The notes under the pieces: generated by a model
The model's input: the letters and a program-made list of their open reading frames with translations, nothing else
What the model was told of the DNA's origin: nothing
The model's database searches: none
Shown here: in pieces, positions 5,215 to 46,908 of the stretch
How positions within the stretch are numbered: position 1 is the first letter of the stretch
Layout of the letters: every line of letters begins with the position of its first letter
Assembly (NCBI GenBank): GCA_044892505.1
Contig: CM097882.1
Location: 75,082,001 to 75,146,000, forward strand
Reading direction: 5' to 3'
DNA from: Schmidtea nova
Lineage: Eukaryota
DNA length: 64,000 bases
Translations under genes and position numbers: made by a program

Positions 5215-5222
5215 AGTCACCA

Positions 5223-8567: not shown

Positions 8568-8578
8568 AAAGGGGGAAG
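8568..8578 (+). promoter_or_regulatory. Polypurine tract
   Basis: AAAGGGGGAAG immediately before the TGTGAATG start of the 3' LTR. Confidence 0.85.
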
Positions 8579-8581
8579 TTA

Positions 8582-9568
8582 TGTGAATGTCACATTTTAC
8601 TGTCATTTTTATATGTTTATTTGCTGTTGAGGATATGAGCGCCGTCATTGTTATGGACGGTGCCTTTGCGGTCACCTGGGCCCCCCCTTTTTTATTATGA
8701 CTGTTAATATTTATTTTATTATTGTTATTATTACAATTATCTTTATTTAAAATTTGAATTTGGCTTACTATAGCAATTTGCTATAGTAAGCCAAATTAAA
8801 AAAATCAGAAATAACGATTAATTTTTAAATTATGAATTAATACTTCAACGAGAAATATTTTGGCAAATTTTCATTGAAATATCTAGTACTAATTTGGGAA
8901 AAAATTACAAGAAAACCAATTATAATAAATCCAAGAAACTTTTCCAACAATTATATTTTCCAACGCATTTTCCAGCTGTATTGTCGAGAAAAAAGCAAAT
9001 TAATTTATTCCAGTTAATTTATTCCAACAATTATATTTTCCAACGCATTATCCAATTGTATTGTCGAGACAAAGCAAATTAATTTATTCCAGTTAATTTA
9101 TTCCAAACAATTATATTTTCCAACGTATCATCCAACCGTATTGTCGAGATAAAAGCAAATTAATTTATTCCAGTTAATTTATTCCAACAATTATATTTTC
9201 CAACGTATTATCCAACCGTATTGTCGAGACAAAAGCAAATTAATTTATTCCAGTTAATTTATATCAGCGATTATATTTTCCAACGTATTACCCAACTGTA
9301 TTGTGGAGAAAAAACAAAGTAACATTTATTTAATTCTTCGGGTTATTTTCATAATAAAACTTGTTTAGTTAAATTGGTTATTCTTAGTTTTTCTGATATT
9401 TTATATTACGTATTTGTAACTATTACTACACACAATCCACTACACAACAAACACCCCGAGTGTCCCAACAATTAATAGGTGACTCTCTCGGGATCTACAA
9501 GTCTTCTCCACATCACACGTACTACAAAATAAAACCCAATTAGAATAGTACATTAGAACTTATAATAA
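8582..9568 (+). repeat. 3' LTR (987 bp)
   Basis: Starts TG after the PPT; matches the 5' LTR to TATAATAA. Confidence 0.95.
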
Positions 9569-27073: not shown

Positions 27074-28523
27074 TCAAGGGTTCCAAAAAACATTGGAGAT
27101 TACTGTGTCAATTAGAATTAAATTTATGTGCACAACAGTGGGTAAAGAGCGCATATGGATCAATCTGCCTAACTCTTGCTTGGAGACCTGATATTTCCCC
27201 GACATTGTGCTAGCTCTATCATATGACTGACCAAAACACATAGTTATTGACAAATCCAAGTTTTCAATTGCTGAAACAAGAACGTTGAACAAATCTTGGA
27301 CACTTGCTCCAGGTAATTCACTGAATTTTATAAACCTCTCTACTGCATCGCCATTTTCTGTTACATATCTCAAAGATAAAGAAAACTGGTCAATGCTACT
27401 TATATCAATAGTTGAGTCAACAATCACTGCAAAATACTTAGCTACTTTGATTTCATCCACAATTTTTGATAGAATCTGAGATAATATGGATTGTATCAGA
27501 TCATTTTGTATATCGGGACTGAGATATGTTGCATTTCGATCACTCAGTAATAAATGTTGTTCCAATATTGCATCATTTTTAGCCAACAGTTTAATCAGTT
27601 CCAAGAAATTCCCTTCGTTTGTCACTGGTGAACCTAAGCCTTGATACTCACGATGGCCACGGAATGTCAATCCTTGTTTTCCAAAAAACAGTACAGCATC
27701 AATGATACATTTAAAAATCATCCTATTTTTTCTATTTCTTTCTTTTCTGTTGTCAGAAGACCAGACAACACAGTTCTATCGTTAAACAACCGGAATTTTG
27801 TCAGAAATAGTTCTTTCTCTGCTTTTTTGTGACTTTCGCTACTTTCATGTTTTTTCAATTTTGTACGTGCCTTTAGCAAAATTCTTGCAGCCAATTTTTG
27901 GATCACTCCAAATATCGGATCGACTAGCAAAAAGCCAACAAGCAAAACAAATCATTATATTAGCTTTTGGTGAGTAGACCAGCCAATGTCTATCAATTTC
28001 ACGACAACCTTTTACTTGTTTCTTCTTATACCAATTAGCACTGAAATGACGTTCAGTTTCATCTTTTGGGAAATTTTCAAATTTATCTTTAAGACCCGGC
28101 TAACTCAAGTAGTGCACGAACAAGTTCTGGCGTCACAGGTTTGTCACAAAACAGATGTGGATCTGTTGAGTATTCCATGTTTGGATCAATAACTGCACGA
28201 AGTCTTATTCTTACTGTGTCATCTTCATCCTCCACCATAGAGTCTGTTGACGTAATCAGGCCTACTGTTGAATCAGAACCCACTTCCTGAACAGTCACGG
28301 CAGCCGGAGTTGTGGTGTTGTTATCAACTCCTAGATTTGTTGTGAATTCTTCTTCTGGTGCCGCAGACGTTGTTGTATTGCTGAATGAAAAATATGCATC
28401 CAATTTTGCATATTTTGAAGATTCTCTTTCACGATCTTCGACTTCTTTTTTCCTCTTTTTATCCCATCCAGATGGTCCAGACCGTTTCTTTCTTTCAGTG
28501 TTATTTTCCATTAAATTTTCCAA
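27074..28523 (-). pseudogene. hAT transposase N-terminal half (ZMYM1-like)
   Basis: NEGNFLELIKLLA, YLSPDIQNDLI, FAVIVDSTIDIS, GQSYDRASTMSG, HCCAH; truncated just after the HCxxH motif. Confidence 0.85.
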
Positions 28524-29679
28524 AAAAATCGGTTTCTAGGTCACAAATCACAATATTTAATTTTCAATTAATTTAATTGATTAATATTTTTATTTTGTTA
28601 TAAACAGCAGACGATGATTATAATAAACAAATAACATTATGGTCAATGAAATATATAATCTTTGGTTTGTCTTTATGAGCAAAGACATTAAATTATAAGA
28701 CGTCAATTCTCCCAACAATCTTGCAACAGATGATAAATCAGTTTGACTCTAAGATAAACTTACTAGTTTCCAGTTGAGAATTTGGTACTTGGATAAGGAA
28801 ATGTTAGACTATCGAATTTATGGACGGAGTGAACACAGTTTTTAACTTTTTATGTTATTTAAACGATTGAAATAAATAAATACAGCTTTGTGACTTGCAA
28901 AATTGGAAATTGAAATTATTGAATAAAGTATGTTTTATTCTTGAAAAGGCCCCACTTTTTGAAAAATGGTCTCAGGGGGAGCGGCTGCTCCCCCTGCTCC
29001 CNNNNNNNNNNNNNNNNNNNNNNNNNNNNNNNNNNNNNNNNNNNNNNNNNNNNNNNNNNNNNNNNNNNNNNNNNNNNNNNNNNNNNNNNNNNNNNNNNNN
29101 NNNNNNNNNNNNNNNNNNNNNNNNNNNNNNNNATCGCAAAAAACAAAATAATAAAAAATACATGAAATAAAATTTAACTTGTTGCTAATATTTAGCCGGA
29201 ACACAAACAAATCCTAAGCGTTTTTTAGCCAAGACACAAACTAACATTAAAAAAATTTTCGCCTGCGGTGCTTTAACTTTTTTGCCCGGGGCGCTGAAAA
29301 CCATAGGGCCGGTCCTGAGTGTAACTTATTCTTTTAAGAAATTCTTTTCTGTATAATAATGGTTTTTACTTTTTACAAGGTTCAACAGATAAAATAATTG
29401 TATATCCCTGTCAATTTAACCAATTAATCATGTTTATTCAGACTTATTTTTAATTTCAATATATATATATATATAAGATGAAAATTATCTACTTAAAAGA
29501 ATTTTTTTTTCTTTAATTTAATGTAAAATTTTGATATTATTTAACTATTCAAGTGTGACGATACAGCCGTAGATTTGGAGAAATTTTATCTAGTTCGAGT
29601 GGCTGTTTTTAGGTGCTATCCAAACAAATTTTAACTACCCTGTTGCAGGGAATACTTTTTAAATGGAATCTTATACTGG

Positions 29680-30034
29680 TGTTAGGATCAGGCCTTTGGC
29701 CTTAACGTTTTGAGGTTTTAATAATAGTAATAATAAATTACTAAAAATAATTAAAATAAAATAAAAATAATTTAAAAACAATTGTAAAACAAATATAGAA
29801 ATAAACATTTACTAAAAATAGAACCAGGCCTTTGTCTGGTAATTGCTAGAACACATTGGACTATAATCGGCAATTATTTATCAACAAAATCGACGTAGGT
29901 CGATTTAATTTTAGTATAAATAATATTGAATTTCAGTTCAGAGGGGACGACGAGACGAATAGAAAAACAACGTGTGAGAGAAAAATAATTAATTTAGAGT
30001 GAACATTGATCGATAACCTACCGCATCGAAAGTT

Positions 30035-30069
<35 letters not shown>

Positions 30070-30675
30070 GGAGAGAACTGTTAATATTTTTGGGAGAAAA
30101 AGAAAGAGCAAAGAAACAGAAAGGAGGAAAAGAATAACATTGTTTTGAAAAGAAGTAATTTTTTAAATTGGTCTAAAAACGTTTATAAAGTAGAGAGTGA
30201 AAGATAAATTTATCTTTTTGGGTTGAAAAATCATTTTAGTTGATATTAATTTTTAAAGCGAATACAAAGTAAAGAAGAATTACTTTAGTATTCTCTGGGT
30301 GCCCCAAAATCATTCCGCTTGCTTATCCACTCTTGTAAAAATATTTCTTAGCGATCGTTGTGTTACTGAGGTGCCAACGATTTCTTGCAGACTGTCACAA
30401 ACAGTAGGGATTAATTTAATCCGAGATCTTTATTGTTCTGTACATCGATAAATTTTGTGAATAATTTAATTATTGTTTTGTAAATTGGTTAAATAAAATT
30501 TGAAAAGAATAGTTAGTTTTCATTTACAGATTTTACCTGTCTTTAAAATACACGCAACCACATTAATTTTGTTATATTTATATTTATTCATTTATTTATA
30601 TATAACAACTTATATAGATATAAAATAGGAGTCAATTTGTGTTAAGATCAGCACCCCTATCTTTTGATCTTGACA
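29680..30675 (+). repeat. 5' LTR (996 bp)
   Basis: TGTTAGGATC...TCTTGACA, with internal (TA)n. Confidence 0.97.
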
Positions 30676-30678
30676 TTT

Positions 30679-30696
30679 TGGTGAGCCCGACGTGAT
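30679..30696 (+). promoter_or_regulatory. Primer-binding site, tRNA-Trp-type
   Basis: TGGTGAGCCCGACGTGAT; one mismatch to the complement of the animal tRNA-Trp 3' end (TGGTGACCCCGACGTGAT). Confidence 0.85.
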
Positions 30697-30809
30697 CATT
30701 TTTCGGGGGATATAAAAATATTATTTATCAGAAACAGTTTTCTTTTTAAATCATTGAGTTAAGAAATAGGAGAATAAATTTTAGACCAGGAAATAGAAAT
30801 CAACAGATA

Positions 30810-33800
30810 ATGGCAGACATAAATAATTTACAAAATGATAATAATTTACAAAATAATGTCAATAATAATAATGTGCCAGTAGCTCAACCACCAGCGGTAG
30901 ATTTTATGAGATACCCAACAATACCAATTAAACCATTTAGTGGGAACCCAGGAGAGTTTCCAGAATTTATGTCCGAATATTTTCAGTTAGCCAGAGCATT
31001 AGGTTTCCCTGAACCGGTAATGATTTTGAGATTACCTTTATATCTAAAAGGGATGGCGCGTGAAATATATAATGATGTTATTATAGCCGAGCATCCAGCT
31101 GAATGGAATGTATTACGGTTAGCGTTACAAAATAGAATATTACCGGGGGATGCAACCAGAGTGCTAAGACAACAATTTTATAATAGGAGACAGAATTTGG
31201 GTGAGCATGTTGGGGAATTTTCTTATCAAATATTAATGTTGGCAGAGAGAGCTTTTGGCGATAGGGCAGCTTGGAATGAGGCAACCAGAGCGTTAGTAAA
31301 AGACCAGTTTTGGTCAGGGTTATCGTCCGCAATGAGAAACGCACTCAGTTTACATATAGGGGATAATTTAGAGGAATTAACTCGTAAAGCTTGCTTAATT
31401 GAAAGTAGTATAGAGAAGTTAAATAATTTCGCAATTAGTACCAATAAGTCCGACATTGAGTGTTTTAACTGTCATAAAAAAGGCCACATATCTAAAGATT
31501 GTAGGAGTAGGAATAATCCCATAGGGGAAAAATCATGTACCAAATGCGGGAGAAACAATCATGTGGCGGCAAACTGCAGATTTTCGGACTTGAGTTGTGA
31601 GAAATGTAAACGCAAGGGACATGTAGCGTCAGTGTGTAAAGTTAGGTTTGGGGAGACTACCTCTAGTAATAATTTTAATAATAATAGAAATAGAAGCCCC
31701 GATAGAAATTTTCAGAATAATAATAATAATAAAAATTTTCAGAATAAGAGTAATAATTTTTCAAATAATAATATAAAGAGGGATGAAGTGAATTCGGGGG
31801 GTAAAATTAAATGTCATACGTGTGGAAAATTTGGTCATATTATGCGTTCATGTCCACAAAATCAGTTGAGTAATAACAATAACAGTAATAACAATAATAG
31901 TAATAGTCGACCGAAACAGACTACGTTTACAGTGAATTCTGATCACAAATTAACATATTTACAGCAGCTTGAATTAGAAATTCAAGAAGAGAGAAATAGG
32001 TTAGCCAGGCTAACGACAAATGAAATCGATGAATACGGCGAAGATGAAGCCGAGGTGTATATGTTGTCAGCCAGAAAAGGGCGCAACAAAGATAATAATA
32101 AACAGAGTAAATTAAGTAATGATATTGTAGCAGAACTTGAGGTATTGATGCTTCAAGAGAGTCCACAGGAGGACCAAGAGGAAAAGGCTATGGTCGTAGA
32201 ACCAGAGGCTTGTGAGGGTTTACCGGTTTCACCCAGGAAAAATCGAGTGGCTATGGTCACAGAACCAGAGGCCAACAGGGAAATAGAAGGTTTACCGGTT
32301 TCACCTAGTAAAAATCGTAAAGCCATGGACATAGATCCAGTGGCAAATAGAGGATATCCAAAAGAAGTTTTGGAAAAACGATGGGCTTCGGTCAGTGAGC
32401 CGGAAGTCTTAATAACCACATCATCCCTGAGAAATGATGGTGGCAGCAAACCGATAAAAGTTAGAGAGGCATCGAAAGAGGAAGGTAATCCCATCGATGA
32501 TTGTAAAATGCTATTACGTCATAGGAACGTATGGCAAAGAGAAATAGAACAGAGGCTAGAAAATATCAGATTAAACCCCATTAACGAGAATGAGGTAGAT
32601 AAAATAATGGATATCATATTAGAATTAAATAGAAATGATGAGTACCATCCGGTATTAAGAGAAATCCTGCGAAGCATAGGATTAAGTTGGAAGCAAAAAG
32701 GAGATCTAGAAGATTCCATAGTTTTTGTTGTCCTACCCAGAGGTTGTTTTTGTAGATATACAATAAACCCAAGAGAAAAAGTCGAAGCACTAGCCAAGAA
32801 AGTCGCTGAGGTAAAACCTCGATTGAAATGCGAACTATATTTGTTGGGAGAAAGATTATTGGAGGGAGAAGCCTTACTAGATTGTGGTATAATACCAGGA
32901 AAACAAATGATAGTAAAAGCAAAGTTTCACAAGGAAACTGTCACGATAGTGGACTCTGATAATGTCCTAACCATAACGGAAATGGAAATTGAACAATTAA
33001 ATCAAATATCAGCGGTACCACAAAGGTTGGGGACAGAGCTGATGCAAAACCCGAGGGACGGGGAAACCATTAAGATGATAATGGATTGGATATTGGAGTT
33101 ACGAATTCCAGTAGATACTCTTAGAGAGGTTATGCCATTGGTGGTGCCTTTATTGAAAGAAACATCACCATTCCAAACGCAAGCAAAGATGCTAGTAATC
33201 AAAAATGGGCATGCTATTAGACACCAGGATAATAGGCAAGGTCCAGTCATGTTAGATATCAGGATACCCAGGAGAGGACACCTGATACAACAATTTTCGT
33301 GTTTCCATAAAGTCAAGAAACTGAGGAAACGAGTGGCGACAATAGTAAAAGAGTCATTTATAATAATGATACACGGTTGTCAGGTTGATGACGACGAATA
33401 TTTAGTGGATGTAGGATGTTTTCCTCAAGAGGAAACTATAGTATTGATACTATTGGTCGAGCTTCCAGAGGACCAATGGGCAACACTGAGATTGCCAGAT
33501 GATGCTGAGTTAGAGAAGGATGAGATCCCTCCCGAGCAGCAACAAGCAGGTGAAGATACCCGCCTACAGGCAGGAGAAACAGTAGATTTAGACGCGGAAA
33601 TAGACAAATATTTACGGGAATTCGACAACACTGAGGATCAGTTGATCGAGATAATGCCATCTTTGGAAGATGAAAGTATAAGATTGAATCAAAAAGAAAC
33701 GAACATCGGAGCTAGTACGTCACAGGGAATTGGGCCATCAAGAGATAGGATGAGCCCGAAACTTGTTGTAAACAGGAGAAAGAAGGAGAGAAGGGGGAGA

Positions 33801-36800
33801 CCGAGAAAGAGTCAAATGAACCCGCCTCCAAGAGAACTCCTAAGGCCTACCACGATACAAAGCGTAAACAGGCAGGCTTTGGCAGGGATAGCCAGCCAAA
33901 TTGATAAAGGCACAAGAGATTTTAGTGCTAAAACGGAAACATGGAGGAGATTGAACCAAATATTAAGACTGATGAAGCCTGAGTGGCAAATCAAGAAAGA
34001 TAAAGCTATAAATGTTGAGAAAATTACAAACAAGATTAAACAAGCAATGAATAAGATTCCAGGAAGCACAACTGAACAGGAATTGTTCGAAGTAGCAGGA
34101 CAATTCATGCAAGAAGGGTTGACAAAAGGGAAAATGATAACAATTTTAGCACTAATGTTTAAAAACACCGTAATAATACTCAAGGATGATCCATCAGGAA
34201 TTCAAGTAGCCTTAGACAGGCTGACTGATATCATTGAAGTGAATTTTGAAACATGGATGACGGAACATAAGTTTTGGGAGACAAAAGAAACGAAAGGGAA
34301 ATATGAGATAAATGAGGAATTGTTGACAGAACATATCCCAAGTAATTCGCGGGGAACAGGTGGATTCACTAATTGGATGATGATGTTATTAGTAATGATG
34401 GGAATATTGAGACAGACAAACTCCTTAACAGCATACGACTGTAGCGAACCGATATTAGCACGGATTTACTCATTGGTAGACACAGTGGAATGCAAGGAAG
34501 CATATCCAGATAAAGTTGCAAAACGAGAGGATGCAGAATACCATGTTTATCAGCAAACAGAGTTTTATAGGACCAGGGTGAGGGAATGTCGAATACAGAG
34601 AGCGACATTTGAATATTACTGTGGATCACACAGTTATACAGCGTTTCTAGGAGCTAAGCTCATTCCAGTACCATTGATAATCCCACCAGAGGATTGCATA
34701 AATGCTTTTAGATCAAAAAATGTCAAAATAGATGACGAAGTGACAATCACAGCAGAGGAAGGAAAGAAGCTGGGTATAACGATTACCAGAGGAGGACCGA
34801 TAGCAGATGATGGTTCTTGCACCGGTAGAAAGAAATTAAGAGGTTCTAATATTGTGAGTTATGTAGTAACAGTTGAGGATTACACTGTAGAGCTAATAGA
34901 ATACGAAGGAACATTTGAAGTATCCACGGGTAAAATGATGTCCCATCCTGAATGTAATGTAAAGTTTGGGTATTGTAAAACCAGTACAGCGGTACTGACG
35001 TATCAATCAATGAGAGAATTTTGCGATTTGGGATACTTGAAAAAAGTAGTGTTTTCAAGACTTGATGGGAAAAGTTTTGCAGCACAAGAGTCACACCAAA
35101 GCGGGTGGGGAGATAAGATAAACCACAAGACGAAAAAAGAGAAAGTACCCGAGAAAAGCACAGCAGTAGTTTTAGTCGCAAAAGATCCTACCGATGCTAT
35201 CCGACTAGTTAGAAAGAAGCAGATAACAAAATGTGGTGTGCCAATATTCGAAACGAACTATAAAGGAATATTCTTAGCATACAAATATGTGCCGGCAGCA
35301 GAAACATTACATTTGTCAGATATAAAAATAGCGAAATATATCAATAATAAAATTGACTTTTTGTATCATGATTTACAGAAGCAACTATTAGACGTTTACC
35401 AGGAAGTGATCTTAAACGATTGTCGTTTAAACAGGGAAATAATACGAAATAGATTAGCAACATCTATTTCGAACCCTGATTTAGTAATGCCAATGTTAAC
35501 CGAGGAGGGAACATTTGGTAGAATTTTGGGAGAAGCAATTTATAGCTATCAATGCAAAGCGGTGGAGGTAGAAATAACCAAATACGATCAATGCACTTTA
35601 GAGCTTCCAGTAAAATATAAAGGAAAATTAAGATTTATGATACCAGTATCACATCAGTTGATGGGAGAAGAGGCAACTCCATTGAAGACAATTTGTAATC
35701 CGGCAATGTCACCACTATACAAAATTAACAATATATGGATTTCCTTACCAGACAGGAAACCACCTTCTAAACCAGTAGAAGTGTTGCAGGCTACTAAATT
35801 AGAAAACAAAATGGAGTTTCGACCATTAAATGAGATGTCAAAAGGGGGAGTATATACTCAAGAAGATATTGAGGAAGCGAGGAGAGCAATAGTGTTTCCT
35901 CAAATCAGAGATAGAGGAGTGACAGAGATAATAACTAGAATTTATCAATCATACGACGGAAAACCGGACTATAATTTATTATTTGGACCGGAACACTACA
36001 AGCAAGCCGCATCAAATGTGATACGGAGAATCTGGGGAAGATTCACAAGCTTCGGAATTTTTGTAGCAGGATGTTCAGGCATATACGCCATAGTGATGAT
36101 ATTGAAAATAATCATATCACAATTATTTTCCACATATAGTATCTTCAAGATCGGAGGATGGTCTTGGAAGTTGCTATTGGGAATGTGCCCACTTTGTGCA
36201 GATTTCGCAGTATTTCATCATCACAATAAAGAAATCAAGAAAATGAAAAGACAAAATGAAACAAAGCACGAAATAATAAAGTATGAATATAGTCATCGAG
36301 ACGATGACAATTCTGACGAGGGAGGTAACCTAGAGGGCGACAAGACCTCATATAACACCTCAACAAAACCAGACAACAAAAAACCGAATTTTCAAAATTT
36401 TGAAACTAGTACTTTTCAACAGTACCCTGTTAAAACAAAAAGACGAAAACAACAGGAATGGCCTGTGAAATATGTGTCTCCATATGAAACTAGGAGAAAG
36501 ATAATACCAGAAAAAGTAGAAGAGGAGATGTTGAGGCGTTTCGATTTTAGGACAAACGCAGGTATTTCAGCACCTCCTATACATTCAGAGTATCACATGA
36601 ATTTCGAGACAATGCCACCTTTGGGAACATCGATATTGGAAACGGTACCAAAATATCCATTTAGCACGTTAGAGAGGCTAAAGGAAAATTATCAAGATGA
36701 AATAAAATCGGAAGACGACAGAGATAGCGAGAATCAACAGAAATTCAGAGATAATATTCGAGGAATATCAACAGTGTTTATGGTAAATTCCAGCAAAAAG

Positions 36801-39800
36801 ACGCACAAGCCTACAATTAAATTAAAGGTTAATAGGCATACGGTTCATGCCATTATCGATTCAGGTTCAGACGTAACGCTGGTCGAAGCAAATTTATTAA
36901 ATGAAAAAGAATTACAAGCAATAATACAGACATTAACTATTACATCAGGAGCAAATGGTCAGCCAATCAATGTTATCGGGACATTAGATTGTGAGCTAAG
37001 GCTATGTGATCAGAAATTTAGACACGATATCAAGGTCACCAGACAGTGTATGGCAGAATGTATCGTGGGAATGGATATATTAAAAAAGTTAAAAGATATA
37101 GTATTTGATTGTGCAACAGGCGAATTGGTAAAAATGACGGGTAGAAAACGGAAAACATACAGTGTTGATGTAGTTTTTCTGGATAGATCAGTGAAAATAC
37201 CACCAAGAACCGAAACAGTTTGTTTTGTAGCAACACACCAAGAGGTCGAGGGAGATGTTATTTTCGAACCCAGTGAGCAGTTCATGAACAGATATAAAAC
37301 ACCTATGGTGCAGAATTTGGCAACAGTACGGGGAGGAAGAATCCCAATTAGATTAACGAATCTAGCGAATAAATCATTGAGGTTGTACCCAGAGACGAGA
37401 GTGGGTAAAGTGATACAACTTTCCAATCCTAGGAAAGAGTCGGAATCAACATTATCGGTGAGTGAGGAGGAACGAGATCCCGATATTGAATATTACGATG
37501 CACCTAGTTGTGATAGTAAAACGTTAACGAGAAAAGAGAATATTAGAGTTAATCAATTATTACGAAGATATGATCAAGTTTTTGCAAAGCACGAATATGA
37601 CTTAGGGCAAGTTAATATTTTAGAGCATGAGATTAAACTAACAGAGAGTAAACCAATAAAGATACGTCCGTATAGAATACCTCAAAGTATACAAGGGTCC
37701 GTGGATAAACAAATAAAATTAATGCAAAAGTATAATATAATCAGACCAAGTAAATCTCCATATTCTTCACCCTTGGTGGTTGTAGCTAAGAGAGATGGTT
37801 CCGTTAGATTGTGTAATGACTATAGGAAATTAAATGAACAAACTGTGAGTGATAATCACCCACTACCTTTGTTAGATTATATATATGATAAAATGAAAAA
37901 TTCGAAACTGTTTACTGTGATGGATGCACAGAAAGGATTCTATCAAATAAAAATGAGCGAAGACTCAATTCCTATGACAGGATTTTCGACTAGTAGTGAT
38001 CATTTTGAATATTTAGTAATGCCATTTGGACTAAAAGGAGCACCTCCAACTTTTCAGAGGGCTATGAATATTATGCTGATGGATGCACATCACGCAATGG
38101 TATATATTGACGACATTATCATTTTCTCGGAAGATTTAGATAAGCATTTAGAACATCTTGAGGATATTTTTAAACGGTTAATCATGGCAAACTTGAAAGT
38201 TAAACCAAGTAAATGCAAGTGGGCAGAATCGGAGGTGATTTACGTAGGGCATGTAATATCACACGATTGCGTAAGACCAGACCCGGCTAACACGGATAAA
38301 GTAAAGAATTTCCCACAACCAGTGAACGTGAAACAAATTAAAGGATTTCTAGGGTTGACGGGATATTATAGAAAATTTATTAGGAATTTCTCTGCAATCG
38401 CCTTTCCTTTGACCACGTTAGAAAAGAAAGGAGTAAAATTTTTATGGGGAGAGGATCAGCAGCAAGCATTTGATAAGTTGAAAGATGCATTATGCAAACC
38501 TCCAATCTTACGATTTCCAGATTTTAAAAGACAATTCATGGTGATGACAGATGCATGCACAAGAGGTATAGGTGCAGTATTGGGACAGAAAGATGAAATA
38601 GGTGATGAATACGCAGTAGCATACGCAAGTCGTGGGTTAAAGCCACACGAAAAAAGTTACGCAGTGATAGAATTAGAAGCACTGGCGTTAGTATTTGCAG
38701 TGGAAAAATTTAGTCATTACCTATGGGGCAGAAAGGTAATTTTCTATACCGATCATAGACCATTGCAATGGCTGTTAAAACATAGGGATGAAGCGTCAAA
38801 ATTGGTAAGATGGGCATTGAGATTACAGCCCTATAATATTGAGATTGTTTATCGAAAAGGAAAAGCCAATGGAAATGCAGACGCATTATCTCGGATGGAA
38901 CAAGAACCGGAGGTCGAAGATGTAAAGGAAGGAAGACTTGAAGGAACTATCTTCATGTTAACAAGAGAAGCAAATACGATAACGGACTTGGTAGAGGCGC
39001 AGAAAAGTGATGACGAGATCAACATGATCAGACAAGCAATCGAAGCAAAAGCTATACCAAGCGAATTTCAAAAATATTGGGAAAAACATAAGGATAAATT
39101 TATCCTAGAGGAAGGATTAATTAAATATGCGGAGACAAGAGATAATGTAATATTAGTGCCAAAGAAGTATAGAGAATCGTTGTTATTACAATATCACGAC
39201 GGAGCACTGGGAGGACATCTCTCAGCAAGACATACATTGTCTAGATTGAAAACAAAATATTTCTGGCCAGATATGAAAGAGGATGTAAAGAAGTGGTGCC
39301 AAACGTGTAAAATATGCATGACAAGGAGGAACACAGGTAAGAAACCTCATGTACCTCTAAAACCTATGCCAGTACCATCCTCGCCGATGGAGATGACTGC
39401 TATGGATGTACTGGGGCCGTTTAAAGAATCAATGATGGGAAATAAATTTATACTAGTCTTCTGTGACTACTTAACGAAGTGGCCGGAAGCATTTCCGATT
39501 CCAAACCATAAAGCCGACACAATTGCCAGAATATTTGTCGAGCAGATTGTATTTAGGTATAGAGTTCCATCAAAACTGCTTACCGACAGAGGGAAGGATT
39601 TTATGAGCAATTTGCTAAAAAGCATAAATGATTATTTTGGGATATTAAAGCTGAACACCTCACCATATCACCCACAAACGGATGGATTGGTGGATAGGTT
39701 CAATGGAACTTTGGCAAATATGTTATCATCATATGTGAACTCAGGACAGACGGATTGGGATGTGCATATACCGTCATGTTTGTTTGCTTATAGGAATGCA

Positions 39801-40328
39801 GTACATTCAGTTACAGGAGAAACACCTTTTTATCTAATGTACTTAAGGCATAGCAAGATGCCAGTGGATCTCATATTTTATCCAAAGGCTTCGCAAAATT
39901 GTGACGAAGGGAATTATTTATTTGAAATGAGAGAGAGAATGCAGGAAGCTTGGGAGAAAGCAGGCTTAAAAATTCGTTATAACCAGGAAACTATGAAAGA
40001 ATACCATGACCGTAAAGCAAAGGAGCATGGATTCTTAGTAGGAGATTATGTCATGTTAGAGGGACATTATAATAAAAAGGGTTTGTCCCCGAAACTTATG
40101 AGGAATTACAAAGGGCCAGATCAAATATTAAAGGCCACAGAGACAAATTTGATTTTACAATCAGTAGCGAACAAGAAAGCAGAACCAATCATGGTTCATG
40201 CAAACAGATGCAAAAAGATAGCTCCACCGGAAAAAGAAAAGCCAAAATCAGAAATAGATGAATTCGAAATAGATAAGAAATCAAAAAAGAAAACTTTGGA
40301 ATCATATAAAAGTATCCTAAAGGGTTAA
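30810..40328 (+). CDS. 3172-aa polyprotein: Gag-4xCCHC-2x(helical+Ubl)-AT-hook-Bcl-2-like-signal anchor-chuvirus-type glycoprotein-TM-PR-dUTPase-like-RT-RNase H-IN
   Basis: Uninterrupted ORF. Knuckles 31461-31853; Ubl 32718-32930 and 33246-33458; RRGRPRK 33789-33809; Bcl-2-like 33867-34280; signal 34374-34424; glycoprotein 34425-36215; IIDSGS (D at 36858); YIDD (38103); TDACTRG and YTDHRPL; integrase HHCC and D-D(35)-D. Confidence 0.95.
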   Translation: MADINNLQNDNNLQNNVNNNNVPVAQPPAVDFMRYPTIPIKPFSGNPGEFPEFMSEYFQLARALGFPEPVMILRLPLYLKGMAREIYNDVIIAEHPAEWNVLRLALQNRILPGDATRVLRQQFYNRRQNLGEHVGEFSYQILMLAERAFGDRAAWNEATRALVKDQFWSGLSSAMRNALSLHIGDNLEELTRKACLIESSIEKLNNFAISTNKSDIECFNCHKKGHISKDCRSRNNPIGEKSCTKCGRNNHVAANCRFSDLSCEKCKRKGHVASVCKVRFGETTSSNNFNNNRNRSPDRNFQNNNNNKNFQNKSNNFSNNNIKRDEVNSGGKIKCHTCGKFGHIMRSCPQNQLSNNNNSNNNNSNSRPKQTTFTVNSDHKLTYLQQLELEIQEERNRLARLTTNEIDEYGEDEAEVYMLSARKGRNKDNNKQSKLSNDIVAELEVLMLQESPQEDQEEKAMVVEPEACEGLPVSPRKNRVAMVTEPEANREIEGLPVSPSKNRKAMDIDPVANRGYPKEVLEKRWASVSEPEVLITTSSLRNDGGSKPIKVREASKEEGNPIDDCKMLLRHRNVWQREIEQRLENIRLNPINENEVDKIMDIILELNRNDEYHPVLREILRSIGLSWKQKGDLEDSIVFVVLPRGCFCRYTINPREKVEALAKKVAEVKPRLKCELYLLGERLLEGEALLDCGIIPGKQMIVKAKFHKETVTIVDSDNVLTITEMEIEQLNQISAVPQRLGTELMQNPRDGETIKMIMDWILELRIPVDTLREVMPLVVPLLKETSPFQTQAKMLVIKNGHAIRHQDNRQGPVMLDIRIPRRGHLIQQFSCFHKVKKLRKRVATIVKESFIIMIHGCQVDDDEYLVDVGCFPQEETIVLILLVELPEDQWATLRLPDDAELEKDEIPPEQQQAGEDTRLQAGETVDLDAEIDKYLREFDNTEDQLIEIMPSLEDESIRLNQKETNIGASTSQGIGPSRDRMSPKLVVNRRKKERRGRPRKSQMNPPPRELLRPTTIQSVNRQALAGIASQIDKGTRDFSAKTETWRRLNQILRLMKPEWQIKKDKAINVEKITNKIKQAMNKIPGSTTEQELFEVAGQFMQEGLTKGKMITILALMFKNTVIILKDDPSGIQVALDRLTDIIEVNFETWMTEHKFWETKETKGKYEINEELLTEHIPSNSRGTGGFTNWMMMLLVMMGILRQTNSLTAYDCSEPILARIYSLVDTVECKEAYPDKVAKREDAEYHVYQQTEFYRTRVRECRIQRATFEYYCGSHSYTAFLGAKLIPVPLIIPPEDCINAFRSKNVKIDDEVTITAEEGKKLGITITRGGPIADDGSCTGRKKLRGSNIVSYVVTVEDYTVELIEYEGTFEVSTGKMMSHPECNVKFGYCKTSTAVLTYQSMREFCDLGYLKKVVFSRLDGKSFAAQESHQSGWGDKINHKTKKEKVPEKSTAVVLVAKDPTDAIRLVRKKQITKCGVPIFETNYKGIFLAYKYVPAAETLHLSDIKIAKYINNKIDFLYHDLQKQLLDVYQEVILNDCRLNREIIRNRLATSISNPDLVMPMLTEEGTFGRILGEAIYSYQCKAVEVEITKYDQCTLELPVKYKGKLRFMIPVSHQLMGEEATPLKTICNPAMSPLYKINNIWISLPDRKPPSKPVEVLQATKLENKMEFRPLNEMSKGGVYTQEDIEEARRAIVFPQIRDRGVTEIITRIYQSYDGKPDYNLLFGPEHYKQAASNVIRRIWGRFTSFGIFVAGCSGIYAIVMILKIIISQLFSTYSIFKIGGWSWKLLLGMCPLCADFAVFHHHNKEIKKMKRQNETKHEIIKYEYSHRDDDNSDEGGNLEGDKTSYNTSTKPDNKKPNFQNFETSTFQQYPVKTKRRKQQEWPVKYVSPYETRRKIIPEKVEEEMLRRFDFRTNAGISAPPIHSEYHMNFETMPPLGTSILETVPKYPFSTLERLKENYQDEIKSEDDRDSENQQKFRDNIRGISTVFMVNSSKKTHKPTIKLKVNRHTVHAIIDSGSDVTLVEANLLNEKELQAIIQTLTITSGANGQPINVIGTLDCELRLCDQKFRHDIKVTRQCMAECIVGMDILKKLKDIVFDCATGELVKMTGRKRKTYSVDVVFLDRSVKIPPRTETVCFVATHQEVEGDVIFEPSEQFMNRYKTPMVQNLATVRGGRIPIRLTNLANKSLRLYPETRVGKVIQLSNPRKESESTLSVSEEERDPDIEYYDAPSCDSKTLTRKENIRVNQLLRRYDQVFAKHEYDLGQVNILEHEIKLTESKPIKIRPYRIPQSIQGSVDKQIKLMQKYNIIRPSKSPYSSPLVVVAKRDGSVRLCNDYRKLNEQTVSDNHPLPLLDYIYDKMKNSKLFTVMDAQKGFYQIKMSEDSIPMTGFSTSSDHFEYLVMPFGLKGAPPTFQRAMNIMLMDAHHAMVYIDDIIIFSEDLDKHLEHLEDIFKRLIMANLKVKPSKCKWAESEVIYVGHVISHDCVRPDPANTDKVKNFPQPVNVKQIKGFLGLTGYYRKFIRNFSAIAFPLTTLEKKGVKFLWGEDQQQAFDKLKDALCKPPILRFPDFKRQFMVMTDACTRGIGAVLGQKDEIGDEYAVAYASRGLKPHEKSYAVIELEALALVFAVEKFSHYLWGRKVIFYTDHRPLQWLLKHRDEASKLVRWALRLQPYNIEIVYRKGKANGNADALSRMEQEPEVEDVKEGRLEGTIFMLTREANTITDLVEAQKSDDEINMIRQAIEAKAIPSEFQKYWEKHKDKFILEEGLIKYAETRDNVILVPKKYRESLLLQYHDGALGGHLSARHTLSRLKTKYFWPDMKEDVKKWCQTCKICMTRRNTGKKPHVPLKPMPVPSSPMEMTAMDVLGPFKESMMGNKFILVFCDYLTKWPEAFPIPNHKADTIARIFVEQIVFRYRVPSKLLTDRGKDFMSNLLKSINDYFGILKLNTSPYHPQTDGLVDRFNGTLANMLSSYVNSGQTDWDVHIPSCLFAYRNAVHSVTGETPFYLMYLRHSKMPVDLIFYPKASQNCDEGNYLFEMRERMQEAWEKAGLKIRYNQETMKEYHDRKAKEHGFLVGDYVMLEGHYNKKGLSPKLMRNYKGPDQILKATETNLILQSVANKKAEPIMVHANRCKKIAPPEKEKPKSEIDEFEIDKKSKKKTLESYKSILKG

Positions 40329-41318
40329 CCAGAACGATACCCTTTACGATCTAGACAAATTCCCAAAACGGTTACATTTTTAACTGTAATCAGTTGTGTT
40401 ATGATGTTGGGTCAAGCATTTGAGAAGTTTGTACCAAAGTCAAGTCAACATCCTGATATCGAATATCATCGAACGGATAGGGCATTCAGATTTTATTTAA
40501 AAAATATAGAATGGCATCGTTACGATTTATATTTGACAACCCCTGAGAAAGGAATATCTTTTCACTTAAACAAATGGGATAGAGTGAAAGAAATTGGAGG
40601 ACTAATGCCAAACACCGGATATCTTTTAGAAATAAAGACATTCTTTGCGGATCCAGACGTTTTTGCAGACGGAGGAAACTGTGATGACAAAGCGGGATGG
40701 ATTTTGAAAACAGCAATATTCACGGAAAAAGTAGAGATTTCTTATCAGGAACAAACGGTAAAATTCACGCATGAATACTGGATGAAAAATAACAGAATTT
40801 TGCTTATATATATATTAGAAAATATGAAAAGAGTTAAAAGATTGGTACTCAACCAATCATATCAAGTTCGGAAATGGACAATACAACCAAAAATGAATAC
40901 AAAAGCCAATATAACATACTTGGAGTTTTCGGAGACGGGGAAAATTGGTTGGTACACAGTACATCATGAACTAGTAGATCTGGTACCACGTGAATGGAAC
41001 AAACCAACTAGCAAGAAAGGGAGAGCTAGATTAGTGAATATTCCTGGGTGTAAAGGAATAAGCGAAACAGATTTGAGAAACCTAAGAAAGGTAGTGAGTG
41101 AAATGCAACCTCGCGTAAATAAACTTCTAACTAATTGCAGTTGCCAAAGAGAAACTAAGGGGATATTACAAGTTAAAATGCCAAATTGGCTATTTGTAGT
41201 TATAATAGGGGGAGTAACCAGTATGGTTTTAGCATTAGTTATAGCAACCCTTTGGATGTTTCGTTTAACTTTAAGGGACAAGCGATATTGGGAAAACTAT
41301 TATGAAACTGAGGTGTAA
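40329..41318 (+). CDS. ORF2: type I membrane glycoprotein with FN3-like ectodomain, in frame with pol after a single TAA (track start 40401)
   Basis: Signal-like VTFLTVISCVMMLGQA; IGGLMPNTGYLLEIKTF (FN3 GLxPxTxY motif); sequons NQS, NIT, NCS; TM WLFVVIIGGVTSMVLALVIATLWMF; tail ends YYETEV. Confidence 0.75.
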   Translation, partial: PERYPLRSRQIPKTVTFLTVISCVMMLGQAFEKFVPKSSQHPDIEYHRTDRAFRFYLKNIEWHRYDLYLTTPEKGISFHLNKWDRVKEIGGLMPNTGYLLEIKTFFADPDVFADGGNCDDKAGWILKTAIFTEKVEISYQEQTVKFTHEYWMKNNRILLIYILENMKRVKRLVLNQSYQVRKWTIQPKMNTKANITYLEFSETGKIGWYTVHHELVDLVPREWNKPTSKKGRARLVNIPGCKGISETDLRNLRKVVSEMQPRVNKLLTNCSCQRETKGILQVKMPNWLFVVIIGGVTSMVLALVIATLWMFRLTLRDKRYWENYYETEV

Positions 41319-41529
41319 GGGGAAAGTCTCACCAGAGAATAGGTAGTGTAAATATATATATATATAAATATTTATTTGATATTAGTATTTATAATTATGT
41401 AGATAAATAATGTGGGCTCAAAGGAGCAACTGTAAAATCAAACATCAGCGTATGTTGACTGGGTTTACCCTGGGAGGGTCTATCACGAAAGTGATAAAAG
41501 CTGTTAATTATTTTATTTTTAGATAAAAT

Positions 41530-42834
41530 ATGAACCTTAACGAAGAATCAAGAGTCCAGACAAAATCAAACAGAACACACCCAATGATTTCCTACAGTTC
41601 CCAAATGAAAAGCAATATAGAGGTATACAGTACATACAAAGAGGAGTATGTCTACAGGTTCATAGGAACCACGGTGGCGGCAAAGATGAACCATCTTACG
41701 TCAAATTATTGGTATTATCCAAGGAGAGTGGATATCCCAAACGATTACAAATTCCCTGGTGGACCCCAAAGGCAAATGATGGTGACGGTTGTAAACAACC
41801 AAGGAAGAATCAAAATAGCAGATTTATGTAGAGAGTATGGCTCATGTCCAAAGATAGAGAATATATGGCTCCATGCGATTAATCGAGCGATTACCGTGTT
41901 TATGGCTGGGATGGAACTACCAGTGGAACTAGGCAAGCATTGCACATTGGAGGTGTATCATGCCGATGGTAGGGAACGTAATATAATGTTACAAGCATCC
42001 GCAGCAAATACTATTATCGCGGTGGAAATATTGGATTTTAAGAAACCTTACCAGTTTGTGAATCGGAATGAGCCTACATGGATTTACAACGTTAACGAAG
42101 AAGATCTCCAGCAAAGTAGATCGTTCGTAAGAAGGAACATGACAAAAGAAGAAGAAGACGAAGCCACAGTTTTTGTATCAGCCGGATTTGCCAAGTCGAG
42201 GATAAATTTGAAAGAAACACTTATCCAGATAGCAATCCTGGATATAAGAGGAAATAATTTATTAAGTGCGGTAGTAACTCCCAAGGATCCAGTTAAGCAC
42301 TACCAGACGCACCAATATAAATTAAAAGAACAAGAAATCCGTGGAAATTTCGACGAGGATGATTGCCACCATTTAATACGAAAGATTTGCGACAAGAAAA
42401 TAGTTGTGGGCATTCTAGTAAAGGATTTACTCAAGGTAGCCAATCTACCAGTGCAGAGACTATTAGGCATCCGTGATTTATCTGCGAATAAATTATTAGA
42501 ATCCCGGGGAGTCCCTAAGATTCATGGGTATTATAGATTGGGATTTCTGACGAAGACATTTCTGCGTACAGTGCCGGGAGAACCAAGAAATTTGGTGGTT
42601 ACCAATGAGGCATTAGCAATTAGGGCTATATATCTACATATTAGAAATGAATGGCTAGACCATATTAGTGTGCCTCAGGTAGAAATTAGGACAACAACTA
42701 CGGTAGAGATAGTTGAACAGGAAGCTTTACAAAAGCAGACGTTACCCGAATTGCCATCTACATCGAAGCAACCCCATTTAAAGAGAAGGGAGAACATACC
42801 AGAAGATCTTCCACCACCCCAATTATATCGATAG
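41530..42834 (+). CDS. ORF3 (434 aa): unknown N-terminal half plus REX4/ISG20-like DEDDh exonuclease fold lacking catalytic acids
   Basis: 42163-42654 aligns by eye to REX4-family motifs: IAILDIRGNNLLSAVVTPKDPVKHYQT, KIVVG..DLLKV, IRDLS, EALAIRAIY..W. Confidence 0.75.
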   Translation: MNLNEESRVQTKSNRTHPMISYSSQMKSNIEVYSTYKEEYVYRFIGTTVAAKMNHLTSNYWYYPRRVDIPNDYKFPGGPQRQMMVTVVNNQGRIKIADLCREYGSCPKIENIWLHAINRAITVFMAGMELPVELGKHCTLEVYHADGRERNIMLQASAANTIIAVEILDFKKPYQFVNRNEPTWIYNVNEEDLQQSRSFVRRNMTKEEEDEATVFVSAGFAKSRINLKETLIQIAILDIRGNNLLSAVVTPKDPVKHYQTHQYKLKEQEIRGNFDEDDCHHLIRKICDKKIVVGILVKDLLKVANLPVQRLLGIRDLSANKLLESRGVPKIHGYYRLGFLTKTFLRTVPGEPRNLVVTNEALAIRAIYLHIRNEWLDHISVPQVEIRTTTTVEIVEQEALQKQTLPELPSTSKQPHLKRRENIPEDLPPPQLYR

Positions 42835-42965
42835 GTGAAGAAGATGAATATGAAACATGTACCAGCGAAGCAGAACAACTGCAACCATCTACCAGCGCTG
42901 CCTATCAGCGAAAGGGTGAGGCAAAAATCACGCCTAGTAAAGACAAACGGGAGACAGGCAAAGTC

Positions 42966-43598
42966 GTGGGAATCCTTAAGAAGATCATACCGGTAAAAAG
43001 AGACAAATCAAAGATGAAGTTGAAAAAGATAGTCAAACAACCAATCGAGAAGAATAAAGAATTACCCCAAAAGGAAAAAGAGAAAACAATAGCCGCTAAG
43101 AAAGTTTTTGCCGAAGGTGATGAGGATATAATGGAAGTCGATTTCCAACCTCCAATAAAGGAATTACAGGAGGAAATAAGGGTAAAGACAGAACCCGAAG
43201 TCCGGCAAAAGATGTTAAAAATCGCCAAAGAAAATATCATAAAGAAGCCTGTGTCAGTGGATGTTGATGGATTTGAACCAATGTGGTATAAACGCCCAGA
43301 CCCTTTATGGAAACCTAGAGCCAAAGACTATGACTGCCAAGCAGTCACAAGAATGGCCATAAATAACAACGAAAGATACGATGTATATGATGTGGATGGA
43401 ATACCTTATGTGGCATCATCGCTTATATTAACAAGCGCATTAGATGATAAAGTTATGGCAGTAAGCTTTGAGTTAGACACTCTTAAGAAAAGAAAACAAA
43501 TACTAAAAAGGCAGTACGCAATTGCTAACGGTTATAGCACAACAGAGGTACATCTGTACAAAGTTCCCGAGCCAGATCCCGATGACCTGGATGTCTAA
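42966..43598 (+). CDS. ORF4, orphan basic/acidic protein (first ATG 43014; frame open from 42717)
   Basis: Intact 210-codon frame inside the LTRs; no recognisable domain. Confidence 0.55.
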   Translation: MGILKKIIPVKRDKSKMKLKKIVKQPIEKNKELPQKEKEKTIAAKKVFAEGDEDIMEVDFQPPIKELQEEIRVKTEPEVRQKMLKIAKENIIKKPVSVDVDGFEPMWYKRPDPLWKPRAKDYDCQAVTRMAINNNERYDVYDVDGIPYVASSLILTSALDDKVMAVSFELDTLKKRKQILKRQYAIANGYSTTEVHLYKVPEPDPDDLDV

Positions 43599-43867
43599 TC
43601 AACACAAGTTGCCTATCAACAACGTCGCAAAGCAAGTAGTGTAGCTATAAAAGACTTGAATTTTTTTTCGTGACTTACCTAACAGTTTATATTTGATCTT
43701 GACTTTTAAAGTATCCTTTGACGTTTATTATATCCTTGTGGTGTACAAATATAAAAATGACTTTCAATCATTTATTAATTTATTTTATGATTTATTTTTA
43801 TGTGTTATGTAAATGCTGTTTGTGACAAGCAAAGTGTCTTATCTTGTTTTCGAGACGAAAATCTTTT

Positions 43868-43878
43868 AGGGGGTAAGA
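43868..43878 (+). promoter_or_regulatory. Polypurine tract
   Basis: AGGGGGTAAGA just before the 3' LTR. Confidence 0.75.
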
Positions 43879-43880
43879 CT

Positions 43881-44235
43881 TGTTAGGATCAGGCCTTTGG
43901 CCTTAACGTTTTGAGGTTTTAATAATAGTAATAATAAATTACTAAAAATAATTAAAATAAAATAAAAATAATTTAAAAACAATTGTAAAACAAATATAGA
44001 AATAAACATTTACTAAAAATAGAACCAGGCCTTTGTCTGGTAATTGCTAGAACACATTGGACTATAATCGGCAATTATTTATCAACAAAATCGACGTAGG
44101 TCGATTTAATTTTAGTATAAATAATATTGAATTTCAGTTCAGAGGGGACGACGAGACGAATAGAAAAACAACGTGTGAGAGAAAAATAATTAATTTAGAG
44201 TGAACATTGATCGATAACCTACCGCATCGAAAGTT

Positions 44236-44284
<49 letters not shown>

Positions 44285-44890
44285 GGAGAGAACTGTTAAT
44301 ATTTTTGGGAGAAAAAGAAAGAGCAAAGAAACAGAAAGGAGGAAAAGAATAACATTGTTTTGAAAAGAAGTAATTTTTTAAATTGGTCTAAAAACGTTTA
44401 TAAAGTAGAGAGTGAAAGATAAATTTATCTTTTTGGGTTGAAAAATCATTTTAGTTGATATTAATTTTTAAAGCGAATACAAAGTAAAGAAGAATTACTT
44501 TAGTATTCTCTGGGTGCCCCAAAATCATTCCGCTTGCTTATCCACTCTTGTAAAAATATTTCTTAGCGATCGTTGTGTTACTGAGGTGCCAACGATTTCT
44601 TGCAGACTGTCACAAACAGTAGGGATTAATTTAATCCGAGATCTTTATTGTTCTGTACATCGATAAATTTTGTGAATAATTTAATTATTGTTTTGTAAAT
44701 TGGTTAAATAAAATTTGAAAAGAATAGTTAGTTTTCATTTACAGATTTTACCTGTCTTTAAAATACACGCAACCACATTAATTTTGTTATATTTATATTT
44801 ATTCATTTATTTATATATAACAACTTATATAGATATAAAATAGGAGTCAATTTGTGTTAAGATCAGCACCCCCATCTTTTGATCTTGACA
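43881..44890 (+). repeat. 3' LTR (1010 bp)
   Basis: Same as the 5' LTR apart from a (TA)n tract 14 nt longer and one T>C near the end. Confidence 0.97.
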
Positions 44891-45146: not shown

Positions 45147-46908
45147 TAGGATGGCCCTTAAAAATTAAAGTTTGAAATCATCTTCTGGCACCCCTCCAAT
45201 GTATTTCACTTACAGAAATAAAATTATGTACAAAAAATCTTGCGAATTGGACAATATTTAGAGGTGGCCCTCCAGCTTTGAAGTTTTACCAAATCCGTTA
45301 AATTTAAATAAAGTTGTGAAACTTGTTTCGCGTGTTGTATAATATGCTGTATTGTAGCTATGCATGTATTAACAATAACTTATAGAGTTAGACACCTTCT
45401 TACTTATTACAGCATCATCTAATACCGCATCTAATACTGGTCATCGTTCAGGAGCATGTTCTCTGATCGAGCACAAACTAAACAAATATCTTCTATTCCT
45501 GGCCTGTCGTCACCACGTTATGGAGCTAATTGTCGGGGCAGCATTTGATAAGACTTCGATTGGCACTTCAACAGGACCAAACATTCTCATATTCAAGCGG
45601 TTCCACGATCAATGGTCATTCATAGACCGTTACAGCTTTCAGGTTGCTTCATCGGACCCATCTTTTGAGTTACTAGTTGCTCCATATCGTTCTGATATCC
45701 TGAGTTTTGCCAGAACATATTTGCAAGCTGAACAGCCAAGAGATGACTACAGAGAATTCCTTGAGCTTGCAGTCATATTTCTTGGCACTGTTCCTGAACG
45801 TGGAATTCGCTTTCAAATACCTGGCGCAATGCATTGGGCACGATGGATGGCAAAAGTCCTCTATTCCATCAAAATGTGGCTTTTTCGCAGTCAGTTCAAG
45901 ATGACTGCTTCAGAAGAGCGTGGTATTTGTAATGTCGCCATCTTTTCCGTTATCATCCACCTCAAAGCATGGATGACTGCGCCACTGGCTGTTGAAGCAC
46001 CTCTGAATGACTTCAAGCTTATGGGACAACTTCAGCAAGAAACTTGGTCTACATTTGTGGTATCTGTCCGAGGAGCTCATTGGTCTGGCTCTGTTTGACT
46101 CCAGATTATCGCATGACTCAAAGAGACTGATGATTGCCGCGATGGACGAAGAAGCTCCGGATCATCCATCGAAGCGACCCAGCATAAAGTCTGGTGCATT
46201 CCTGGGAAAACACGGTTTGGAGCAGTTCTGTACATCAAACTCCAAGAAACTGTTCCAGTTGCTTGATCTGCCCGAAGCACTGCTCGACAAGGATCCATCA
46301 GACTGGGAACAGGATGAGTCGTACACACGAGTACTAGGCATTGTCAATAGCTTGGCGGTTGTCAACGACAGAGCCGAGCGTGGAGTTGCTCTCATTCAGG
46401 ATTACAACAAAAAATTGACCAAAAATGAAGATCAACTCCAGTTTCTTCTTCAAATTGTGAATGAACACAGGCGACAATTCCCTGACTGTACCAAACGAAT
46501 CCTAGCGAATTGTACTAGTACTGGTGAACAATTGGACACTGCGAAATAATAGTAATACGGATGAACAGTTGGCAGTCTGGCAGAGACATAATTCTTAACC
46601 TTTGCACTTTGCAGTTTGAGTTATTTCTGAATTAGTGATATTACAGTAAACTGAACTTTTACAAGCTGTTGTGTGTGACTGTGCGTGGAATAAATGTGAA
46701 CTAAACAAGAAAACTGTAGCAATTTAACATTGCAAGCTTCAAATAGTGGTACTTACAAAACTTAAACACTCGAGGGCCACCTCTAAATATTGTCCAATCG
46801 TAATGATTTTTTGCACAATTCATTATTTCTATATTTGGCACAGATTGGATTTGGGCCAGACTTGAAATTATGACTTCAATTTTTTGCTATGTGCTAAGGG
46901 CCACCCTA
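45147..46908 (+). mobile_element. Internally deleted hAT-superfamily (hATm-like) DNA transposon
   Basis: TIRs TAGGATGGCCCTTA / TAAGGGCCACCCTA; second inverted pair ATTGGACAATATTTAGAGGTGGCCCTC (about 45247-45273 and 46772-46798); no clean TSD seen. Confidence 0.8.
45421..46549 (+). pseudogene. hATm-like transposase C-terminal portion, frameshifted near 46030
   Basis: TASNTG..GAC, LACRHHVMELI, PGAMHWARWMAK, VVNDRAERGVALIQDYN. Confidence 0.8.

Follow-up and report, generated by a model that had tools for sequence, protein, structure and literature searches.

A probably inactive ISG20-type exonuclease domain in a selected accessory gene of gag-env-pol retroelements of Schmidtea nova

What would an LTR retroelement do with an exonuclease that has probably lost its activity? 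This question is raised by an ATG-initiated ORF of 434 aa (41530-42834) in the window, a stretch of 64,000 nucleotides of the Schmidtea nova genome. The first-pass annotation described it as a catalytically dead REX4/ISG20-like exonuclease carried as an accessory gene. We found that this ORF belongs to the 3' accessory gene, hereafter ORF3, of a 15.2-kb Ty3/gypsy gag-env-pol element (29680-44890; Table 1). As far as sequence and structure prediction go, the idea of a dead accessory gene of an LTR element holds up: the fold, the alignment with intact sisters, the conservation across six families and the purifying selection all point to it. The roles suggested in that annotation, as RNA shield, decoy or suppressor of silencing, are plausible; it overlooked the truncation of the ORF, the oxygenase-type fold of its N-terminal part, the C-terminal domain and the sister families with an intact motif.

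The host element displays the features of Ty3/gypsy (Metaviridae) LTR elements with env: LTRs, target-site duplication, primer-binding site, the order protease-RT-RNase H-integrase and a fusion glycoprotein are all present. We take its primer-binding site to resemble the 3' end of tRNA-Trp. The two LTRs, each about 1 kb, differ by one mismatch and by the length of a (TA)n run, which together with the CTGG duplication indicates a young insertion. The polyprotein comprises Gag with three CCHC knuckles, a ubiquitin-like insert, a Monjiviricetes-type fusion glycoprotein (env), protease, RT, RNase H and integrase. The ubiquitin-like stretch was found by profile (di-ubiquitin, 5e-5), the best single-ubiquitin matches reaching only E ~2e-3; the insert between Gag and env (~32670-32850 and ~34000-34350) contains it along with a helical stretch, which recalls, by eye, the BCL2-like motif reported for Burro. 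The 305-aa ORF that follows gave no Pfam match at the cut-off. It is cut from pol by a stop codon (40326-40328, after the integrase) absent from the sister copies examined, which read through, and in other families this pol extension has diverged strongly, to 26-27% in some and beyond detection in others. The last integrase catalytic motif of the window copy also differs from that of the sister families, though its LTRs differ at one site only.

Table 1. Features of the element and of its ORF3 (positions in the window)
Feature	Positions	Strand	Basis or remark
5' LTR (TG...CA)	29680..30675	+	target-site duplication CTGG directly 5' at 29676-29679
Primer-binding site, starts TGG	30679..30695	+	sequence
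3172-aa polyprotein, single frame	30810..40328	+	Pfam (PF24664 E 3e-81; RVT_1; rve)
305-aa ORF, hydrophobic C-terminal stretch	40401..41318	+	ORF list, sister copies
Predicted splice acceptor, T-rich tract ending AG, 7 nt before ORF3 ATG	41505..41522	+	sequence
ORF3 5' part, 434 aa, with the frameshift of the window copy near codon 431	41530..42834	+	ORF list, genome copies
N-domain, aa ~25-174, predicted double-stranded beta-helix of 2OG-Fe(II) oxygenase/AlkB type	41602..42051	+	predicted model
ISG20/REX4-type DEDDh domain, aa ~212-381	42163..42672	+	fold match, ESM Atlas, alignment to intact sisters
Frame with rest of ORF3: charged low-complexity linker and ~110-aa conserved C-terminal domain	42717..43598	+	
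3' LTR	43881..44890	+	purine-rich tract 5', CTGG 3'

The 434-aa ORF is only part of the gene. Among the best 30 copies fetched, 20 encode 689 aa and two, including that of the window, stop at 434; moreover, the frame 42717-43598 of the window copy carries 259 aa that match the final part of the 689-aa sister protein exactly. A natural product of 434 aa is ruled out by these copies and by this tail. The shift, at about codon 431, falls in a short homopolymer run, hence either a lesion of the window copy or an assembly error. Searching the genome with ORF3 gave at least ~40 full-length copies at 84% or more (family A) and at least ~40 at 62-64% (family B), these counts being lower bounds with 97 of 1983 candidates scored and 99 matches listed. 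A T-rich tract ending in AG precedes the ORF3 ATG also in families B, C, D, E and S2 and on an outside metagenome contig (L117), and none was seen in the 45 nt examined for family S1. We infer from this tract that the ORF3 mRNA may be a spliced, subgenomic one using the predicted acceptor; the four contig runs searched for such a joint (one study, kind unrecorded) contained none and are not informative on expression.

Direct Pfam and PDB sequence searches with ORF3 gave no match, and the sequence homology of its nuclease-like domain to PF00929 is indirect only, running via intact sister families and the family profile. The assignment of the C-terminal half to ISG20/REX4-type DEDDh enzymes is nonetheless well founded. 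With residues 205-385, 28 of the 30 ESM Atlas matches were RNase_T/ISG20 clusters (best 0.94). The AlphaFold2 model of the domain, built from 12 natural copies (pLDDT 72), matches ISG20 1wlj best, with Z 17.5 (rmsd 3.0, 164 aligned), followed by Pan2 at 14.0, and Foldseek retrieves ISG20L2 (E 9e-8) and ISG20 (5e-7). The domain is 29% identical to the intact S1 domain over 188 aa with two single gaps (E 1e-25), S1 itself matches RNase_T (1e-6) and ISG20 1wlj (7e-7), and the ORF3 family profile matches 7yw5 (E 1e-25). Thus the domain shares fold and sequence profile with the ISG20/ISG20L2/REX4/SDN1 exonucleases (PF00929; 1wlj, 7yw5, 5z9x), its predicted DnaQ-like fold being closest to ISG20 within the DEDDh superfamily. 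It differs from these enzymes by the loss of three of the four acids and the His, by its fusion to an oxygenase-fold and a C-terminal domain, and by being encoded by a retroelement.

The intact sisters came from a PF00929 scan of the genome, in which most of the 33 matches belong to one multi-copy family, S1, with motifs D-A-E, GHDLQSE and H-T-A-L-E-D. The S1 ORF sits at the same 3' place of an element with the same gag-insert-env-pol layout, whose LTRs are identical in the copy examined, and 71 of the 150 S1 matches listed are at least 92% identical over the domain. A second intact family, S2, is 52-54% to S1. The homologous ORF of two sister gag-env-pol families of the same genome carries an intact D-E-E-D/H motif, in which ISG20 D11, E13, H149 and D154 are matched and D94 is replaced by Glu. 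The same scan identified no host ISG20/REX4 orthologue, one of which could be hidden by introns; its best match (L079), a single ERI1-like exonuclease, seems to belong to the host. Two rearranged copies were also seen: in one S2 copy (L114:2335-9000, minus strand) an internal deletion fuses the integrase in frame to an intact-motif ORF3, and one S1 copy is interrupted by an insertion (L103) whose long ORF (1970-6073, minus strand) reads by eye as a protein-primed B-family DNA polymerase, a second, capsid-like ORF (8700-9920, minus strand) giving this insertion, again by eye, a Polinton/adintovirus-like aspect.

The S1 alignment fixes the register of the catalytic residues. The ISG20 ligands, numbered D11, E13, D94, H149 and D154 in PMC9157404, correspond in this register to S217 (42178-80), G219 (42184-86), L300 (42427-29), L355 (42592-94) and E360 (42607-09): three of the four acids and the His are gone. 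By alignment, the domain thus lacks the full set of four acidic ligands plus His of an active DEDDh enzyme. The motifs proposed earlier need partial revision. Exo II, read as GILVKDLLKV, was correct, the position of its acid being L300. Exo I had been placed one residue off, at V-S-A, whereas it aligns to S217-A218-G219. In Exo III, read as R..NE, the His aligns to L355 and not to R353, and E360 (D in families D and F) preserves the last acid. Consequently, V-S-A and R..NE are ruled out as the catalytic positions. The inactivating residues, whose conservation across copies had been suggested as a check, are kept in families A to F: of the 42 family-A and family-B ORFs scored for the motif, none retains the acids of Exo I and Exo II or the His, and Leu stands in place of the His in each of the 12 dead-clade rows covering that position. 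As most catalytic residues are gone, and as a single Exo II change is reported to abolish ISG20 activity (PMC5388505), the domain has very probably lost its nuclease activity.

The N-terminal 200 aa, previously considered unrecognised, are predicted to adopt the beta-helix core with flanking elements of 2OG-Fe(II) oxygenases and AlkB. Folded alone with 43 sequences (pLDDT 91), this N-domain matches ALKBH6 (Z 10.6, rmsd 3.6, 136 aligned), a viral prolyl hydroxylase (vCPH, 10.1), ALKBH1 (10.0), ALKBH5 (9.9) and vaccinia C16 (8.0). Since the top 14 rows are near-tied (Z 9.1-10.6) and Foldseek is weak (E only 6e-4, with cupins mixed in), AlkB and prolyl hydroxylase types are not separable. The ESM Atlas gave no usable match for the N-domain, no oxygenase Pfam match was obtained among 49 homologues scanned, and the canonical HxD/E..H iron triad and 2OG-binding Arg were not seen by eye in the well-filled columns of 54 aligned N-domains. 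Intact and dead ORF3 members have this domain in common, and H115 is near-invariant in its 43 rows.

Could one of the two domains be an enzyme of another kind? The DEDD-fold domain might have a non-canonical nuclease activity, as does Maelstrom, or the N-domain might hold a metal via H115, conserved as mentioned, and E166. Position 360 holds an acid (E or D) in 10 of the 13 dead-clade rows, and D288 (13/13), E324 (11/13) and D299 (10/13) are acidic mainly in the dead clade. We nevertheless judge a cryptic enzyme quite improbable: replacements have removed the two acids of Exo I, that of Exo II, the His, the family-invariant GxD acid (296) and the Glu of Exo III, where the single Exo II change suffices in ISG20 (PMC5388505), and the last acid is also gone in more distant degenerate homologues.

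The dead state is common to six element families of the genome (A-F); for F, the query listed about 80 matches at 56-58%, and the eight of those that were fetched are family D. Between two family-A lineages, dN/dS is 0.05 for the dead nuclease domain (pN 0.017, pS 0.253, 183 codons), 0.09 for the N-domain, 0.24 for the linker and 0.09 for the C-terminal domain, which has no Pfam or PDB sequence match. Intact S1 pairs give 0.06-0.07 and one pair of decayed family-C copies 0.25. The nuclease domain is also the best conserved part of ORF3 between families A and B (79%). The window copy itself is damaged, by the ORF3 frameshift and the stop after the integrase, as would be expected if a once-active captured nuclease were simply decaying. 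This neutral scenario is hardly credible and we reject it: it is contradicted by the dN/dS of 0.05, the frame is open in most young copies, and the dead state is older than six families between which synonymous sites are mostly saturated. Purifying selection and the sharing of the dead state by six families rather indicate a pseudo-nuclease that is real and old.

Selection on ORF3 shows a function, not which one. The explanation that we prefer, tentatively and with a little less than even confidence, is that the dead ISG20-type domain of this selected accessory gene works as a non-cutting RNA-binder which protects or handles the element RNA. An ISG20/REX4-like exonuclease of the host would have been captured by an ancestor of the gag-env-pol elements, which carried it in fusion with an oxygenase-fold domain. 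One branch (S1, S2) would have kept the enzyme, whereas in the other small or hydrophobic residues would have come to fill the pocket, with the fold and a basic surface retained. Expressed from a spliced subgenomic RNA, the dead nuclease would bind stem-loops or the 3' ends of RNA with the help of the AlkB-like domain, and the element RNA would be shielded from host 3'-5' decay or small-RNA surveillance. 

Several observations are consistent with this explanation. The active-site mutant of ISG20 still binds structured viral RNA (stem-loop) according to PMC5388505, and Maelstrom and EXD1 are presented in PMC5408684 as DEDD derivatives which are inactive but still bind RNA. Basic residues R224, K228, K256, R284, K285, R310, K330 and K342 persist in 75% or more of the 13 rows, partly by shared ancestry. 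Elements with a dead ORF3 form one integrase clade (8 rows, apart from the 4 intact rows; support 96/98), and the same layout exists on the outside metagenome contig. Other features argue against it. The domain has only a slight excess of positive charge (31 K+R versus 26 D+E, with 28 versus 29 in family D), smaller than that of intact S1 (35 versus 25), the position of the ISG20 RNA-contact Arg53 is mostly Gln, and E360 survives, along with an acid close by at 299, where 10 of the 13 dead-clade rows have one.

ORF3 might also act on proteins. As a decoy or antagonist, it would use both degenerate domains to bind host defence or RNA-decay proteins instead of RNA, for example partners of the ISG20/REX4-like nucleases of the host, or piRNA factors. 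The presence in one protein of two enzyme folds without canonical catalytic sets would suit this role, as would the ubiquitin-like insert of the polyprotein and the match of the N-domain to the N-terminal domains of vaccinia C16, an antagonist of innate sensing; this match, though, is weaker than those to AlkB and prolyl hydroxylase. ORF3 also diverges much faster than the integrase (38-42% versus 83% between families A and D), but so do intact ORF3s (S1 versus S2, 30% and 54%). On balance we regard a decoy as unlikely.

Families A and B are mosaic with respect to each other. Their gag-env-pol and membrane-type ORF have 94-97% DNA identity (window 30592-41250 versus L061/L031), whereas ORF3 and most of the LTR are only about 60-75% identical, with a switch near 41,250. 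This shows that an ORF3-plus-LTR block, as read from sequence, was exchanged between them. That ORF3 and LTR differ together, and that acceptor-like sites precede the ORF3 ATG, would also fit a trans-acting regulator of the element's own LTR or transcript (activation, export, anti-silencing), comparable to the spliced 3' accessory genes of complex retroviruses. Such a role seems rather improbable: ORF3 adjoins the LTR, so that one exchanged block accounts for the linkage, and no DNA-binding or activation domain was identified in ORF3.

Returning to the RNA-binder that we favour, it could be part of a wider picture, which we put forward as doubtful: a widespread, hitherto undescribed accessory family of envelope-carrying gag-env-pol retroelements, combining two captured folds of RNA enzymes (AlkB-like and ISG20-like), would have split into live-nuclease and double-pseudoenzyme branches, both of them expanding within a single genome. 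The dead form, swapped between families along with the LTR, would suppress host RNA decay or piRNA silencing. Since one genome holds intact and dead versions of one gene in sister families that were both amplified recently, nature supplies a pair on which to ask if the element needs catalysis or binding. Little is known about counter-defence proteins in animal LTR elements, and an ISG20 fold in the service of a retrovirus-like element would reverse its usual antiviral role.

Relatives of ORF3 exist outside this genome. A word-index protein search gave no match and another such search a single one with a mixed alignment; a full HMMER scan retrieved 66 homologues, 62 of them with the nuclease-like domain and 47 covering all five sites. 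Among these 47, 23 are intact (DEEHD in 14, DEDHD in 9) and 24 degenerate. RNase_T matches are often found in intact homologues and never in degenerate ones (49 scanned). The trees leave out rows in which one or more of the five sites are missing and rows shorter than 150 aa, the second also 5 near-duplicates; the degenerate clade that holds the window domain has 12 rows, six of them outside proteins (support 99/96). Loss of catalysis requires two changes on the quick tree and one, at weak support (63/80), on the careful tree; the analysis has no cellular outgroup, and long branches meet. One homologue (P0007) lies downstream of a 3184-codon gag-env-pol frame on the metagenome contig mentioned above; we assume that the other 65 are element-borne too. 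No relative was found in viral contigs. Another protein of 1113 aa (P0015) combines a degenerate domain of the ORF3 family with a long acidic repeat tail and could be a host-domesticated or expanded form.

Captured DEDD exonucleases were already known as 3' extra ORFs of the bdelloid LTR elements Juno and Vesta and of Terminons (PMC5408684), to which the first-pass annotation compared ORF3. The parallel is valid for the extra ORF, and the DEED motif variant reported there also occurs in S1 and S2. It does not extend to the type of enzyme: bdelloid ORF3s are of RNase D/DEDDy type with intact residues, in elements mostly without env, whereas the present one is DEDDh/ISG20-type. A common family is ruled out, the intact relatives having the His and matching RNase_T/ISG20. 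The sections of PMC5408684 dealing with these ORFs describe neither an oxygenase-fold domain nor a dead branch, and present their activity as not demonstrated.

For the element itself, env between gag and pol has been described in the Burro elements of planarians (PMC6431247), and GAG-ENV-POL errantiviruses are known in nematodes, bryozoans and flatworms (PMC13524379). From the descriptions in these two sources, Burro/GYPSM1 and these errantiviruses share with the window element an env in frame between gag and pol, three CCHC knuckles, a ubiquitin-like insert before env and a mononegavirus-like fusion protein. Burro exceeds 30 kb compared with 15.2 kb here, and its BIR, ankyrin and MATH domains have no Pfam match in the window element. 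Section 7 of PMC6431247 does not mention an exonuclease ORF for Burro, and 'exonuclease' and 'DEDD' occur 0 times in the eLife main text.

A 2OG-oxygenase fold in an extra Gypsy ORF is likewise reported from orchids, as an AlkB/2-ODD domain (PMC9289625). That domain is presented as a recent, active m6A demethylase, whereas our N-domain has no sequence-level match and no canonical triad was seen. Exuperantia (Z 10.5 to our model), EXD1 and Maelstrom have a DEDD fold without the catalytic set, used for RNA binding, but they are host genes of other DEDD subfamilies, with no homology to ORF3 beyond the fold. A literature search, with subscription papers, Repbase records and supplements outside its scope, found no ISG20-type ORF in LTR elements, no oxygenase-fold fusion and no dead branch. 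Against the literature so delimited, an ISG20-type, oxygenase-fused ORF with a dead branch appears to be new here.

The window contains other mobile elements. A second Ty3/gypsy element, env-less (3003-9371, ORFs 4150-8114), lies between ~99% identical repeats with 80-nt tandem units. A DUF4371 ORF (27074-27775, minus strand; E 9e-21) and ORFs between 128-nt inverted arms (45160-46884) are both probably remains of DNA transposons.
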